Below, one piece after another: positions 22,951 to 31,327 of a stretch of DNA of 64,000 bases. A model generated the notes under the pieces. It worked only from the letters and a program-made list of their open reading frames with translations. It was not told the origin of the DNA and did no database searches. The position numbers were made by a program, and so were the translations under genes. Every line of letters starts with the position of its first letter. Position 1 is the first letter of the stretch. Origin of the DNA: Escherichia coli (GTDB taxonomy: Bacteria; Pseudomonadota; Gammaproteobacteria; Enterobacterales; Enterobacteriaceae); NCBI RefSeq assembly GCF_009931435.1, contig NZ_CP043414.1; one strand, written 5' to 3'.

Positions 22951-24773
22951 ACAGTCTGATTTCCCTGCGGGTTGATCGGTAAAATAAGCGTGAAGGTTGC
23001 GCCGTAGCCCGGCAAACTGGCGACGCGAATATCACCCTGATGGGCATTAATGATGCGTTGACTTAACGCCAGACCAAGCCCGGTTCCTGAGGCTTTGGTA
23101 GTGAAAAAGGGATCGAAGATCTTTTTTTGCAGCGAGAGATCAATGCCACTGCCGTTGTCCTCTATCGAAATGGCCTGTTGTGAGTCGCTATACTGCCAGG
23201 TTCGAATGCGAATTTTCCCTCGTGCACTGATAGCCTGGACGGCATTGATCAGGATATTCAGTAGTACCTGTTTGAGCAGTTCACGATCGGCGTTAATCGG
23301 GCTTAATTCATTATCCAGTTCGCTTATGAAGTCGACTCGCGCTTGTACGCCGGCGGTTTGTACCAGTACCAGAGTTTCTTCAACCAATGCATTGAGGCTG
23401 ACTTGTTGCCATTGACTGTGGCGTGGGCGTGAAAATTCGAGCAATTGCTGAATAACTTTGTTAATTGAATCGATTTCTTTGAGTACTACGGACAGATATT
23501 CCTGATGTATTGGGTCACTGGTTTGTTGGCGCAAGATCTGTACATAACCACGAATAGCCGTTAACGGATTACGTACTTCATGCGCCACGCCAGCCATCAG
23601 CTCACCCAGTGTGGCGAGGCGTTCAGCTTGCGCCATGCGGCGCTGGGTTTCTTTGCGGGCAGTTAAATCAGAGAAAATCACCAAAGCACCTATCATTTCA
23701 CCATGCGTATTATGAATACGACTGGTAGTGACACTGAGTTCAATGGTGCGCTCACGGCCTGGAAAACTGATCTCCAGCGCCACATGTTCGGTACCATGTT
23801 CCAGCGTATCCAGTACTGGACTGTAGAACGGAGTATTGTCGAACAACATGGAGTAAGGCTGCCCTACCAGTTCATGACGTTGATAGCCAGTGATGACTTC
23901 TGCTGCCGGGTTCATGGTGGTTACATCACCCTGGCGGTCAATGGCAATGACGCCATCGGCAGCGTTTTCAATAATCAGATCGTTAAGTGTTCGCGTTTCA
24001 CGCAGTGCCTGGGCGAGGTTGTTGACACTCTGACTAATTTGCCCCATTTCACCGGGCAATTGTGGTAATCGAGTGGGAATATTTTGCGCCAGAGTCGCGA
24101 GACCATCGGTGATGATATCTATATTGGCGCTCAGGCGACGGGAGAAAAGGACAATCAACAGCAGGCTTATCAGCAAACCGGCGGTGAGCACAATGATAAT
24201 CCTCACATCCATTTTCCAGGCCTGGCGGCGAATATCTTCGGTTAATTCATTGGCCCAGATATAACCGAGGATTTCACCATTACGCTCAATGGGGATCATT
24301 GAATTCAAAATATCGCCGCGCACCTGCCTGCCTGAATAAATCAAAGGAGTATTTGTACGCATGACTTCGCGACCAGGGTGATCTGCGGCAATAGTAACGC
24401 CCACATTATTCTGATACAGCGCTGAAGGCGCGTAAGTGATTATCGCATCCAGTGTTTTGTTGTAATAACCAGCACCTATGCCAGGAAAGGCGTGAGTGAT
24501 ATTTTCAGTAATGGGAGCAAGTTCTGCATTCAGTGCGTGGATTCGCTCCTCACGTGGTAAGTCGTTGTAGAGATCGTAGCGATCGCCTAGCGCCTGATTA
24601 AGCAGGTTGACCACGGCAGAAAGTTTTTTCTCTTTTTCAGATAAGACTGCTGAACGTCCTTCCGTTTCTACGATATAACCAATAGTAAGCGTTGGGACAA
24701 TGACCATCAGGATTGCCATCAGGATCATTTGATTGCGTAAGCGGCGTGGATAAATCCACTTCATATAATGCAT
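22947..24773 (-). CDS. atoS: Sensor histidine kinase AtoS
   Basis: Start MHYMKWIYPRR (608 aa) inside the 612-aa ORF; H-box HEVRNPL; stop overlaps the atoC start. Confidence 0.93.
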   Translation of the reverse strand: MHYMKWIYPRRLRNQMILMAILMVIVPTLTIGYIVETEGRSAVLSEKEKKLSAVVNLLNQALGDRYDLYNDLPREERIHALNAELAPITENITHAFPGIGAGYYNKTLDAIITYAPSALYQNNVGVTIAADHPGREVMRTNTPLIYSGRQVRGDILNSMIPIERNGEILGYIWANELTEDIRRQAWKMDVRIIIVLTAGLLISLLLIVLFSRRLSANIDIITDGLATLAQNIPTRLPQLPGEMGQISQSVNNLAQALRETRTLNDLIIENAADGVIAIDRQGDVTTMNPAAEVITGYQRHELVGQPYSMLFDNTPFYSPVLDTLEHGTEHVALEISFPGRERTIELSVTTSRIHNTHGEMIGALVIFSDLTARKETQRRMAQAERLATLGELMAGVAHEVRNPLTAIRGYVQILRQQTSDPIHQEYLSVVLKEIDSINKVIQQLLEFSRPRHSQWQQVSLNALVEETLVLVQTAGVQARVDFISELDNELSPINADRELLKQVLLNILINAVQAISARGKIRIRTWQYSDSQQAISIEDNGSGIDLSLQKKIFDPFFTTKASGTGLGLALSQRIINAHQGDIRVASLPGYGATFTLILPINPQGNQTV

Positions 24774-24939
24774 GCTGAATCCCACTAGTCTTGTCCGGTA
24801 TATGACGATTATCAGAGGTTAAGGTGATGATTTCTCGGCGGTGTATCATATTCCAGAGAAGAGAGAACATTGCGGTAACACGCTTTTACCGCTACCTTAA
24901 CCACACTCCATCGGTCACCTGAGGCGGAGCTTCGCCCCT

Positions 24940-27777
24940 TTGAAATACCTTGCTTCTTTTCGTACAACCCTGAAAGCCTCGCGCTACATGTTCAGAGCAT
25001 TGGCGTTAGTGCTCTGGCTGTTGATTGCTTTTTCATCCGTTTTTTACATCGTTAATGCGTTGCATCAGCGAGAATCGGAAATTCGTCAGGAATTTAATCT
25101 GAGTTCCGATCAGGCTCAGCGCTTTATTCAACGCACCTCTGATGTGATGAAAGAGCTGAAGTACATAGCTGAAAATCGCTTATCGGCAGAAAACGGTGTG
25201 CTTTCGCCGCGTGGACGAGAAACGCAGGCAGATGTGCCAGTGTTTGAACCACTGTTTGCCGACTCCGATTGTTCCGCAATGAGTAACACCTGGCGAGGTT
25301 CTCTGGAGTCATTGGCGTGGTTTATGCGCTACTGGCGCGATAATTTCTCTGCGGCTTACGATCTCAACCGGGTATTTTTAATCGGCAGCGATAACCTTTG
25401 CATGGCCAATTTCGGTCTGCGTGATATGCCAGTGGAACGCGATACCGCGTTGAAAGCTTTGCATGAACGCATCAATAAATATCGAAATGCACCACAAGAT
25501 GATAGCGGCAGTAACCTCTACTGGATCAGCGAAGGTCCGCGCCCTGGCGTCGGGTATTTTTACGCCTTGACGCCAGTTTATCTGGCGAACCGGTTGCAGG
25601 CGCTTTTAGGTGTTGAGCAGACCATCAGGATGGAGAACTTCTTCTTACCTGGTACGTTGCCGATGGGGGTAACCATTCTTGATGAAAATGGTCATACCCT
25701 GATTTCGCTTACCGGACCGGAAAGCAAGATTAAGAGCGATCCTCGCTGGATGCAGGAACGTTCCTGGTTTGGCTATACGGAAGGGTTCCGGGAACTGGTG
25801 CTGAAGAAAAACCTGCCACCTTCATCGTTAAGCATCGTCTATTCGGTGCCGGTTGATAAGGTGCTGGAGCGCATTCGCATGTTGATCCTTAACGCGATTT
25901 TACTGAATGTGCTTGCCGGAGCCGCGTTGTTTACTCTCGCACGGATGTACGAGCGGCGTATATTCATTCCTGCGGAAAGCGACGCCCTGCGACTGGAAGA
26001 GCACGAGCAGTTTAATCGCAAGATTGTCGCTTCCGCGCCAGTGGGTATCTGCATTTTGCGTACCGCTGATGGCGTTAATATTTTAAGTAACGAACTTGCG
26101 CATACCTATCTCAATATGCTTACGCATGAGGATCGCCAACGACTGACGCAAATTATTTGTGGTCAGCAGGTCAATTTTGTTGATGTCCTGACCAGCAACA
26201 ATACCAATCTGCAAATCAGCTTCGTCCATTCGCGCTATCGTAATGAAAACGTGGCTATTTGTGTGCTGGTGGATGTTTCTTCGCGCGTGAAGATGGAAGA
26301 GTCGTTGCAGGAGATGGCACAAGCAGCGGAACAGGCGAGTCAGTCAAAATCGATGTTCCTTGCCACCGTAAGTCATGAGCTGCGAACGCCGTTGTATGGC
26401 ATTATCGGTAACCTGGATCTGTTGCAAACCAAAGAGCTGCCAAAAGGCGTCGATCGTCTGGTGACGGCAATGAACAACTCTTCCAGCCTGTTGTTGAAAA
26501 TTATCAGCGATATTCTCGATTTCTCGAAAATTGAATCAGAACAGTTGAAGATCGAACCGCGTGAGTTTTCACCGCGTGAAGTGATGAACCACATCACCGC
26601 CAACTATTTACCGCTGGTGGTACGCAAGCAGCTAGGCTTGTACTGCTTTATTGAACCGGATGTGCCAGTGGCCTTAAATGGCGACCCAATGCGTTTACAG
26701 CAGGTCATCTCCAACCTGTTGAGTAACGCCATAAAATTCACCGATACCGGCTGTATAGTTCTGCATGTTCGCGCTGATGGCGATTATCTCTCTATCCGTG
26801 TTCGCGATACCGGCGTGGGGATTCCGGCGAAAGAAGTGGTGCGCTTGTTTGATCCCTTCTTCCAGGTCGGAACGGGCGTACAGCGTAACTTCCAGGGGAC
26901 TGGTCTGGGTCTGGCGATTTGTGAAAAACTGATCAGCATGATGGACGGCGACATCTCGGTAGATTCAGAACCGGGAATGGGCAGCCAGTTTACCGTGCGT
27001 ATTCCGTTGTACGGCGCTCAGTACCCGCAGAAAAAAGGCGTGGAAGGGTTGAGTGGTAAACGCTGCTGGCTGGCGGTCCGCAATGCGTCGCTCTGTCAGT
27101 TCCTGGAAACCAGTTTGCAGCGCAGCGGCATCGTCGTTACAACATACGAAGGGCAGGAACCGACTCCCGAAGATGTGTTAATCACTGACGAGGTAGTGAG
27201 CAAAAAATGGCAGGGTAGAGCGGTAGTGACCTTCTGTCGTCGCCATATTGGTATTCCGCTGGAGAAAGCGCCAGGGGAGTGGGTACACAGTGTGGCTGCA
27301 CCGCATGAGCTACCGGCATTGTTGGCGCGTATTTATTTGATCGAGATGGAGAGCGATGATCCTGCTAACGCTCTGCCGTCGACGGACAAAGCGGTCAGCG
27401 ATAACGACGATATGATGATTCTGGTCGTGGATGATCATCCGATTAACCGGCGTCTGCTTGCAGATCAGTTGGGATCGTTGGGTTATCAATGTAAAACTGC
27501 GAATGATGGCGTCGATGCGCTTAATGTACTTAGCAAGAATCATATCGATATCGTGCTTAGCGACGTCAACATGCCAAATATGGATGGTTACCGCTTGACG
27601 CAACGCATTCGTCAGTTGGGGCTGACGTTGCCGGTAATCGGAGTAACTGCTAATGCGCTGGCTGAAGAGAAGCAGCGGTGTCTGGAGTCCGGTATGGACA
27701 GTTGCCTGTCGAAGCCGGTAACGCTGGATGTTATAAAACAGACACTGACGGTATATGCCGAGAGGGTCCGGAAATCG

Positions 27778-27789
<12 letters not shown>
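24940..27789 (+). CDS. rcsC: Hybrid sensor kinase RcsC
   Basis: 949-aa ORF MKYLASFRTTLK...; H-box HELRTPL, C-terminal receiver domain; the ORF begins with a TTG codon. Confidence 0.93.
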
Positions 27790-27987: not shown

Positions 27988-28638
27988 TTAGTCTTTATCT
28001 GCCGGACTTAAGGTCACAGAAGAGAGATAATTCAGCAGAGCAATATCGTTCTCGACACCCAGCTTCATCATCGCAGATTTCTTCTGGCTACTGATGGTTT
28101 TGATACTGCGGTTCAGCTTTTTAGCGATCTCGGTCACCAGGAAACCTTCCGCAAACAGGCGCAGAACTTCACTCTCTTTTGGCGAGAGACGCTTGTCACC
28201 GTAACCACCAGCACTGATTTTTTCCAACAGGCGAGAAACGCTTTCCGGGGTAAATTTCTTCCCTTTCTGCAGCGCGGCGAGAGCTTTCGGCAGATCGGTC
28301 GGTGCACCTTGTTTCAGCACGATCCCTTCGATATCCAGATCCAATACCGCACTAAGAATCGCCGGGTTGTTGTTCATGGTCAGAACGATGATCGACAGGC
28401 TTGGGAAATGGCGCTTGATGTACTTGATTAAGGTAATTCCATCGCCGTACTTATCGCCAGGCATGGAGAGATCGGTAATCAACACATGCGCATCCAGTTT
28501 CGGCAGGTTGTTGATCAGTGCTGTAGAGTCTTCAAATTCGCCGACAACATTCACCCACTCAATTTGCTCAAGTGATTTGCGAATACCGAACAAGACTATC
28601 GGATGGTCATCGGCAATAATTACGTTCATATTGTTCAT
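27988..28638 (-). CDS. rcsB: Response regulator RcsB (LuxR/FixJ family)
   Basis: Start MNNMNVIIADDHP (216 aa) inside the 231-aa ORF; receiver plus HTH. Confidence 0.96.
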   Translation of the reverse strand: MNNMNVIIADDHPIVLFGIRKSLEQIEWVNVVGEFEDSTALINNLPKLDAHVLITDLSMPGDKYGDGITLIKYIKRHFPSLSIIVLTMNNNPAILSAVLDLDIEGIVLKQGAPTDLPKALAALQKGKKFTPESVSRLLEKISAGGYGDKRLSPKESEVLRLFAEGFLVTEIAKKLNRSIKTISSQKKSAMMKLGVENDIALLNYLSSVTLSPADKD

Positions 28639-28654
28639 GTAATAGGCTACCTTG

Positions 28655-31327
28655 CTACAGCAAGCTCTTGACATAACTGTCAATGTCGCTGATGTATTTT
28701 TCTATTCCTGGAACATCCTTCTCACGAATCAGATGTTCCAGCGTTTCACATAACTGCTTGCCGGGTACCAGATTTAGCATGGCAAATACGCCTTTAAGAC
28801 GATGAGCCGTTTGGGCTAACGCAGCAAAGTCACTGGTTGCTGCTTCAGTATACAGCCTCTTAACATCATCCGGTACTGTGTCTACAAAGAGCGCATAATA
28901 GCCGCTGGCATGGAGTTGCGCATTTTCATCTCCGCCCAGAGGCGATTCTGTCACCTCTTCCTGCGCCAGTTGCACTTCAATTAATTGTAAGACCGCTTCC
29001 TGCATAGCGTTGCTCATATTGAAGTTGACGCACAATTGACCAGGCCCAATTTCCCGTACGCCAGACTCATCATCGCTTAAAAGCAAGCCAGAGGCAGTAA
29101 GATTAGACGGATTATCCGTTAAAAAGATATCATAATCTTGACTAATTAATCTTTCATCGGGTGTGATACAGGTTGCACCCCAATTTTCTAACTGGCGAGT
29201 GACAATATTCCGAATTTCTGCTGAAGTGACATCCACCATTACGCAGACATCATCCAGTAAACGCTCTTCTTCCTCTTCAACTTCCGGATCAGCTGCGAGC
29301 ATTTTGATATGCACAGAATAGCGTGTACCAAGCCCGTCCCGCGTTTTGATGTTTAAATGACCGCCCAGTTTACGCGCCAGTTGATCGCTCAACCAGAATG
29401 CCAGCGGGTCGGCCTTGCCATAGCGATCGTTTTGGGTCCGGTTGATAAACGGGAAGTGCAAATTATCCATTTCATGAATGCTTACGCCTTCACCGGTGTC
29501 CAGAATGCGGAAAGTCAGGCGGTCTTCGGACGATTCATCCTGATCAACCTCAAGGGTGATTTTTCCCAATTGTGTTGAGGTCACGGCATATTGCATCAAT
29601 AGCAGCAAAATACGGCGTAAGGCATCGCGATCGCCACGGCGCATATCGTGTGCTTTCAGATGATTGTTAATCAGCAGTTGCAGTCCTTTACGCTTGATGG
29701 CAGGCAATACTGAAGGCACAACTTCATCAATCAAATCCTGCACGGAGAACAGCTCCGTCTCACTTTTCCAGCTATCGTCCGCAAGCATATTCGCTAACTG
29801 TATTTCATCGACCAGCCGCACCAGCACATCTGCCTGATTCGCCAGTTGTTTGCCTTCCGGGGCGTTGAGTTTAGCCGCGCTCTCCGCCAGGGACTGTGCG
29901 GGTTCTTTCAGCGCATCGCCAATGTTTTTCATAAAGGTCATCCGCCCCTGCTGGTTTTTCTCATACAGACGCTGCGCCTGCTTGAGTTTCTTGTTTACCA
30001 GCACTTCGCGATCCTGATCGCGAATAATGAAAATTTGTGTGCGCGGCGCAACCTGGCTGCGGAACATGCGGATCTCATACAGCTCGTTATTGATCGTCGC
30101 CTGAATAATCCCCTGATGCTGCTCCGCCATGGTAGTGATGTTTTGCAGATTTAAATGCGGCAGCAAATGATCGGCAATTTTGTTACTTATGACAGTGCGG
30201 TTCGATTCCTGATCGTGAACCAGCAAGCCGAGCGGCAGCAGTGAGACTATCTCTTCATTAATTGCCCGTAAAATGCGCAATTCGTTATTGACCGCCGTGC
30301 TGGGGACGCTTTCTGTACTGCGGCTGGAGAAATGGCGGAATGTGGTATAGCCAAATAACGCCAGCGCCAGCAAACCGATGTTCAGCAGCAGTGGCAGCAG
30401 AATGTTTTGCAACGTATCCAGCAATAAGGTGCCATAAGGAACCTGCCAGACCAGGCGCATATCGGTAGAGTTGAGTGCCGAGGAGATTTCAATCTTCGTA
30501 CTGTTAAAGTGGATACTGACGCTATCCGTCCCTTCTTTCTCATTTTCATTGTTTCCCGTTGCCGTCGCGTCTGGCTCAAGGCGGAAACTGTCCAGCGGCA
30601 TACCCGGTGGGATCAAATCATTAATCGGCAGATCAAAAGCAACGACCGTTGCCAGATGTCCCGGCTGGTTGAACGTGGTACGCAAGGTAAAGTAATGACC
30701 GTTCTGCCAGGCCAGGCGGCGCAGGTTAGAAAAACTTTCGCGTTCATCGAGCGCGTTGGCCTGTTGCAACATCTCTGCGCGACGTGAATCAACAATGTCG
30801 CTGACGGTCGATTCTTTAAATCCGGAGGTGAGATCTTTGAGGGGCAGGGTCGAGATCAGTACCAGACTGTTATCCTGACCATTCAGGTAATACATCGACC
30901 ACGGTATATTTTCTGCGCCCCATAACGTGTCCAGATAGGTGGACATCCGTTGAGTCATCTCAAGCGTTGAGTTGTCGTGAGAGCCAAAGATTAACGCTTC
31001 CGTTTTGCGGCGTGGTTTTTCCAGATAGTAGACATCCTGTTTCAGGCGCGTCTCTTGTAAACCTTCGCCGGAGGAGGGGGAGGTCGTCGCGGCAATGTTG
31101 TCGTAGATCTGCCAGGTCACATAACGCCAGGTATCGACGCGCTTTTGGATAGCGTGGGTAATGTCGACAATCTGGTAACTTTTATCTTTCAGCCAGGCGT
31201 TAACGGCGCTTTGTACCATTACACCCATCGTCACCAGTAACACAATGATCAACAGTAAAAAGAAGCGGGTAATGCTCCCCGGTAGGAGTGAAAAGCGGGT
31301 CGTGGCCGTTGTCTCTTTCTGACGCAT
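28655..31327 (-). CDS. rcsD: Phosphotransfer protein RcsD
   Basis: 890-aa ORF with N-terminal TM segments and a C-terminal HPt region; immediately upstream of rcsB. Confidence 0.93.
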   Translation of the reverse strand: MRQKETTATTRFSLLPGSITRFFLLLIIVLLVTMGVMVQSAVNAWLKDKSYQIVDITHAIQKRVDTWRYVTWQIYDNIAATTSPSSGEGLQETRLKQDVYYLEKPRRKTEALIFGSHDNSTLEMTQRMSTYLDTLWGAENIPWSMYYLNGQDNSLVLISTLPLKDLTSGFKESTVSDIVDSRRAEMLQQANALDERESFSNLRRLAWQNGHYFTLRTTFNQPGHLATVVAFDLPINDLIPPGMPLDSFRLEPDATATGNNENEKEGTDSVSIHFNSTKIEISSALNSTDMRLVWQVPYGTLLLDTLQNILLPLLLNIGLLALALFGYTTFRHFSSRSTESVPSTAVNNELRILRAINEEIVSLLPLGLLVHDQESNRTVISNKIADHLLPHLNLQNITTMAEQHQGIIQATINNELYEIRMFRSQVAPRTQIFIIRDQDREVLVNKKLKQAQRLYEKNQQGRMTFMKNIGDALKEPAQSLAESAAKLNAPEGKQLANQADVLVRLVDEIQLANMLADDSWKSETELFSVQDLIDEVVPSVLPAIKRKGLQLLINNHLKAHDMRRGDRDALRRILLLLMQYAVTSTQLGKITLEVDQDESSEDRLTFRILDTGEGVSIHEMDNLHFPFINRTQNDRYGKADPLAFWLSDQLARKLGGHLNIKTRDGLGTRYSVHIKMLAADPEVEEEEERLLDDVCVMVDVTSAEIRNIVTRQLENWGATCITPDERLISQDYDIFLTDNPSNLTASGLLLSDDESGVREIGPGQLCVNFNMSNAMQEAVLQLIEVQLAQEEVTESPLGGDENAQLHASGYYALFVDTVPDDVKRLYTEAATSDFAALAQTAHRLKGVFAMLNLVPGKQLCETLEHLIREKDVPGIEKYISDIDSYVKSLL

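Follow-up and report, generated by a model that had tools for sequence, protein, structure and literature searches.

UUG is the start codon of about 3% of E. coli genes and, in reporters, AUG, GUG and UUG initiate at 10–100% of the AUG level (10.1101/063800); start codons in general tend to evolve towards AUG (PMC5622118). Among the UUG-initiated genes, rpsT resembles rcsC in that the initiator tRNA provides an N-terminal Met and a Shine-Dalgarno (SD) sequence is present upstream, and differs from it in coding for a ribosomal protein instead of a membrane sensor kinase and in an SD spacing of 8 nt versus 11 nt, both taken from the same table (PMC13245402, Table S1). This table belongs to TRAINSPOTTER, published in 2026, in which deformylation-assisted N-terminomics was applied to E. 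coli K-12. Another two-component gene with a TTG start is uvrY/sirA of Salmonella (PMC7241856), which encodes a response regulator whereas rcsC encodes a kinase.

The amount of RcsC matters for the balance between kinase and phosphatase activities and is post-transcriptionally adjusted in Salmonella; in particular, a csrB csrC mutant of this organism shows a 1.3- to 1.9-fold increase in RcsC with an effect on RcsB activity, and a putative CsrA site, as yet unconfirmed, has been proposed in the rcsC leader (PMC7241856). The TTG start of E. coli rcsC is already known from the reference annotation and from a published N-terminal peptide. The gene is considered here in the window, a stretch of 64,000 nt of the E. 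coli chromosome, in which a sequence-only reading had recognised rcsC and placed its start at a TTG codon; the analysis confirms the annotation, and its sole new increment, a modest one, is the order-wide invariance of TTG-AAA.

Identity and genomic context of rcsC

The reading frame opened by the TTG contains 949 codons plus a stop and its product, as translated in the list of open reading frames, begins (M/L)KYLASFRTTLK; the + strand reads ...gaggcggagcttcgcccct TTG AAA TAC CTT GCT TCT TTT CGT... around the start (Table 1). The product aligns from residue 1 to 948 with positions 1–948 of the 949 positions of the RcsC equivalog NCBIfam NF008099, with a score of 1841.2 bits that passes the curated cut-off of 920 bits, and since the alignment begins at residue 1 the N-terminal 16 residues are included in the profile. 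The Pfam domains are HisKA (PF00512, residues 470–534) and HATPase_c (PF02518, 581–690), followed by RcsC-ABL (PF09456, 709–799) and Response_reg (PF00072, 827–936); the order HisKA, HATPase_c, RcsC-ABL and receiver is the hybrid-kinase order of RcsC. On the 5' side lies the divergent atoS, whose ATG is at 24773 on the - strand, while rcsB and rcsD are located directly 3' on the opposite strand, in convergent orientation. The gene is rcsC, coding for the hybrid sensor kinase of the Rcs envelope-stress phosphorelay, and the name given to it in the sequence-only reading is borne out by the full-length profile match, the Pfam domains and the atoS/rcsB/rcsD context.

The rcsC gene of K-12 MG1655 (b2218) has the same length of 949 codons, the same TTG start and the same order atoS / rcsC / rcsB / rcsD; the two sequences agree at every position from -120 to +60, counted from the TTG, and the two proteins differ by four substitutions (A101V, G266S, L938V and D948E). 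A 701-nt query around the TTG found matches in 5422 of 5426 complete E. coli genomes, 3876 of which cover at least 80% of the query, and the best match, at 99.9% over the query, is that of strain 2013C-4282, the closest to the window. About 29% of the complete E. coli genomes match only from window position ~24861–24864 onward, namely from 76–79 nt 5' of the TTG, and an O157:H7 strain lacks the ato cluster and has yfaP/yfaQ upstream of rcsC instead; the ato operon is thus polymorphic in its presence, with a junction immediately 5' of the conserved rcsC promoter block.

Table 1. Features at and around the rcsC start, in window coordinates
Feature	Position	Strand	Details and basis
Inferred rcsC promoter	24870..24905	+	TTGCGG 24870-24875, 17-nt spacer, TACCTT 24893-24898; cross-genus conservation
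In-frame TAA limiting N-terminal extension	24898..24900	+	Translation from 24898; 14 codons upstream of TTG
Shine-Dalgarno region GAGGCGGAG	24921..24929	+	GAGG 24921-24924, GGAG 24926-24929; 10 nt from GGAG to TTG
Predicted hairpin GGCGG-AGCU-UCGCC overlapping the SD	24923..24936	+	-6.5 kcal/mol in a 28-nt context
TTG initiation codon of rcsC	24940..24942	+	First ATG/GTG/TTG after the TAA; annotation; peptide; conservation
rcsC coding sequence, 949 codons plus stop	24940..27789	+	ORF list, NCBIfam, Pfam
Second codon AAA (Lys), nucleotide-invariant	24943..24945	+	Single codon in 75 distinct ungapped sequences
Codons 2-19, conserved basic tail, putatively cytoplasmic (K2, R8, K12, R15, R19)	24943..24996	+	Entropy, alignment, charges
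ATG codon 17 (Met17), alternative start for a 933-aa protein	24988..24990	+	First in-frame ATG
First hydrophobic (transmembrane) segment, residues 20-38, ALALVLWLLIAFSSVFYIV	24997..25053	+	Best Kyte-Doolittle 19-mer, mean 2.52

Evidence for the TTG start and its conservation

Between the in-frame TAA and the TTG the frame contains no ATG, GTG or TTG and a single CTG, at 24919, and the first in-frame ATG is found, as the sequence-only reading had stated, 16 codons downstream of the TTG as codon 17. No canonical start other than the TTG opens the full rcsC frame, so that chance is not at issue and the question is one of usage. The RefSeq annotation made by PGAP starts rcsC at this codon in both records consulted, that of strain 2013C-4282 and that of an O157:H7 strain; the curated K-12 MG1655 record (b2218, NP_416722.2, 2317027..2319876) places the start there too, and the K-12 sequence reads TTG at this codon.

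The start is demonstrated by published proteomic data, which, together with initiation-site profiling, had been proposed as a check on the sequence-only reading. In Table S1 of PMC13245402, row 477 (b2218/rcsC) reports the peptide MKYLASFR, residues 1–8 of 949, which maps to the TTG, and classifies the site as dbTIS at a near-cognate TTG (NC_000913 2319876-2319874; UniProt P0DMC5); the support listed for it is "Ribo-RET (BL21)" and, from elongation-based data, "REPARATION", the Ribo-RET entry being for BL21 only and not for K-12, and two SD cores are given with a best spacing of 11. TTG database starts number 10 among the 688 confirmed in the same study. Since nothing but the initiator tRNA places a Met at a TTG codon, the peptide reveals initiation at the TTG and excludes read-through from the upstream CTG. 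For rcsB the table lists an alternative internal start at the non-cognate AAG of codon 149 (window 28194-28192, - strand) with the peptide MRLSPKESEVLR; the row, which shows no Ribo-seq support, would correspond to a 68-residue C-terminal proteoform made up of the DNA-binding domain only.

The conservation of the TTG, also suggested as a check, was followed in a scan of one genome per species that recovered 80 Enterobacteriaceae loci, 73–99% identical over the N-terminal 340 residues. With the window included, all 81 sequences have TTG as their homologous first codon, while just 9 (Escherichia and Superficieibacter) have ATG as codon 17, which elsewhere is CTG, CTT, TTA, CTC, CTA or TTT. Protein searches found 11 more distant orthologs, most of which adjoin gyrA and, downstream of rcsC, an rcsB-like gene (Response_reg + GerE); their first codon is TTG in 9 cases, GTG in 2 and ATG in none, and for one of the 9 the gene caller had placed the start at a downstream ATG. 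Altogether, the 92 Enterobacterales orthologs comprise 90 TTG and 2 GTG starts, with no ATG and no codon unable to act as a start, a count that is descriptive and sets phylogenetic non-independence aside. The TTG start claimed at the outset is thus upheld by annotation, by conservation and by the published peptide.

Synonymous positions within the gene serve as a comparison. Six other columns with invariant Leu use 4–6 synonymous codons each, whereas the first codon is solely TTG; in the 75 distinct ungapped sequences, none of the 24 four-fold sites in amino-acid-invariant columns is invariant, none of the 41 invariant Leu, Arg or Ser columns has a single codon and only 1 of the 116 amino-acid-invariant degenerate columns of codons 2–340 does, namely the AAA of codon 2, all these figures being likewise descriptive and taken regardless of shared ancestry. 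The stretch TTGAAATA is invariant in alignment A2 and the bases just 5' of it vary between genera, a pattern that argues for nucleotide-level constraint on this initiation core.

The codons that follow the TTG evolve as coding sequence: for codons 2–16 the column entropy is 0.15, 0.18 and 1.10 bits at codon positions 1, 2 and 3, a coding periodicity like that of codons 18–90, while the 81 nt upstream of the TTG give 1.43, 1.43 and 1.40, with no such periodicity. Alignment A1, with members 41–89% identical to the window protein, shows no variation at K2, Y3, L4, S6, T10, S14, R15, Y16, F18 and R19. The tail KYLxSFRTTLKxSRYLFR (residues 2–19) is among the best-conserved parts of the N-terminal third of RcsC, and to our knowledge no function has been assigned to it. 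On the Kyte-Doolittle profile M17, F18 and R19 are located at the cytoplasmic edge, ahead of the hydrophobic core of residues 20–38; the ATG of codon 17 had been placed inside the first transmembrane helix, which does not hold, as M17 lies three residues before that core. By their charges and invariant positions, residues 1–19 fit a functional cytoplasmic tail obeying the positive-inside rule.

Proposed alternative initiation sites

ATG is generally the preferred start codon (PMC5622118), and if the ATG of codon 17 were the start, RcsC would have 933 residues and the extension to the TTG would be an artefact of choosing the longest frame. A length of 933 amino acids is in fact still quoted for MG1655 RcsC (PMC10652928), and this figure, being 949 minus 16, implies a Met17 start. 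The longest-frame rule does over-extend some genes: the mechanical list gives rcsB as 231 aa from a TTG (27988-28683, - strand), whereas the annotated and conserved RcsB has 216 aa from an ATG (27988..28638), so that taking the first start after a stop is wrong for rcsB and right for rcsC. The original 1990 paper on the rcsC sequence reportedly used the Met17 start, and the residue numbers H463/D859 and H479/D875 are presumably the old and the new numbering of the same protein. With Met17 as the sole start, codon 17 would have to initiate although 72 of the 81 Enterobacteriaceae sequences have no start codon there, codons 2–16 would show coding-type evolution and invariant residues outside the protein, and the peptide MKYLASFR (PMC13245402) would have no source; in addition, the 20 nt before ATG17 contain no SD, with an anti-SD duplex of -0.1 kcal/mol, the codon falls in a predicted local stem, and removal of the tail would leave only M-F-R before the helix, with the loss of four of the five positive charges. 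The peptide, the conservation and the missing SD refute Met17 as the sole start, the probability of which is minute. The numbering of RcsC over 949 residues, and not 933, is therefore the correct one and the conserved basic tail of 19 residues belongs to the protein.

A less drastic proposal keeps the TTG as the main start in Escherichia and adds a minority of initiation at ATG17, with a proteoform shorter by 16 residues. Both Escherichia and Superficieibacter have the ATG, alternative starts a short distance apart are frequent in E. coli (PMC13245402), and the Arg-cleaved N-terminal peptide of the Met17 form would be M-F-R, too short for proteomic reach, so that proteomics alone is blind to a minor second start of this kind. 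The examined part of the TRAINSPOTTER table contains a single rcsC row, for the TTG, and no Met17 row, and the main text of the Ribo-RET paper (10.1101/520783) makes no mention of rcsC; moreover, the lack of an SD and the predicted stem weigh against ATG17 here as well, and Met17 is a conservative Leu/Met difference that does not require a start function. Such dual initiation is improbable. The CTG at 24919 could instead extend the protein at its N-terminus by seven residues (LRRSFAP), given that it is in frame after the TAA and that CTG is a rare near-cognate start with 1–2% of the activity of AUG (10.1101/063800). The observed peptide has Met at the TTG position, where read-through would give Leu (PMC13245402), and the upstream region, devoid of coding periodicity, is not alignable as protein across genera; the SD would be just 2 nt away from the CTG, with a weak duplex of -2.4 kcal/mol, and the inferred leader is merely ~35 nt long. 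The Met-first peptide and the missing upstream coding signal exclude this start, whose likelihood is practically nil. We hold with high confidence that the TTG is the real and sole significant start of rcsC, at which a modest rate of initiation would keep RcsC low relative to RcsB.

Initiation strength and upstream elements

At the TTG start, the UUG is read by the initiator fMet-tRNA to give Met-Lys-Tyr-Leu... and a protein of 949 residues; the GAGG/GGAG SD about 10 nt upstream would position the 30S subunit, and the first 19 residues would make up a basic cytoplasmic tail that precedes transmembrane helix 1. The near-cognate codon, the long SD spacing and possibly the small hairpin at the SD would combine into a deliberately modest initiation site, and this may in turn hold the amount of RcsC below that of RcsB. 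The idea of the sequence-only reading that a weak start keeps RcsC expression low is plausible and fits the conservation, and the start codon may tune expression in this way.

The 20 nt before the TTG form a duplex of -7.5 kcal/mol with the 3' end of the 16S rRNA, a strength matched by the best 2.6% of 20-mers drawn at random from the window, and GGCGGAG is kept in most genera; the spacing of ~10–11 nt is long, yet inside the 3–15 nt range of PMC13245402. The strength of this SD and the AAA second codon both favour initiation, which suggests that the site may be tuned and not simply weak.

Compensatory changes are absent from the predicted 5-bp hairpin that overlaps the SD, and Klebsiella, Kosakonia, Phytobacter and Pluralibacter have it disrupted or lost; a region of 121 nt folds no better than its shuffled versions (z = 0.74); a stable or conserved structure of the rcsC leader is rejected on both counts, and the role of the modelled hairpin is uncertain. 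A search of positions 24600-25200 against Rfam returned no family at E <= 1. The predicted hairpin places GGA at the stem-loop junction, in a manner that resembles a CsrA-type site.

The general trend favours AUG, yet UUG has been retained in at least 80 species, which suggests gene-specific selection. The nucleotide invariance of TTG-AAA across Enterobacteriaceae and the lack of an ATG start among the 92 orthologs could be explained by active selection for a capped and tuned rate of RcsC synthesis, a reading that draws on ATG being one mutation away, on the saturation of silent sites and on the trend towards AUG, and that is advanced tentatively, as somewhat less than an even prospect. If it is true, the likely purpose would be a fixed RcsC:RcsD:RcsB ratio and thereby the balance of kinase and phosphatase, possibly with room for regulated initiation, for example by CsrA at the GGA-containing hairpin of the SD. 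A weak start unchanged in at least 80 species and followed by an invariant AAA would then be a clear-cut case of initiation strength under selection in a low-copy signalling protein.

Further upstream, a promoter-like block consists of TTGCG(G/A), a spacer ending in TTTACCGC, TACCTT and then an invariant CA 6–7 nt downstream; its TTG, TAC, TTA and CA are invariant across 26 enterobacterial genera while the flanks diverge. A scan with the sigma-70 consensus gave 0 sites at threshold, each hexamer of the block matching 3 of 6 positions. Judging from this conservation, the CA at 24904-24905 is likely the transcription start, from which a leader of ~35 nt would result. In genera without an adjoining ato cluster, a strong GC hairpin followed by a T-run (AAAGGGCCGG-TTTC-CCGGCCCTTTTT) is found directly 5' of the promoter block, about 60–110 nt upstream of rcsC (for example at loci L027, L033, L036, L046 and L073); since gyrA precedes rcsC in the same orientation in the more distant orthologs, the hairpin may serve as its terminator.
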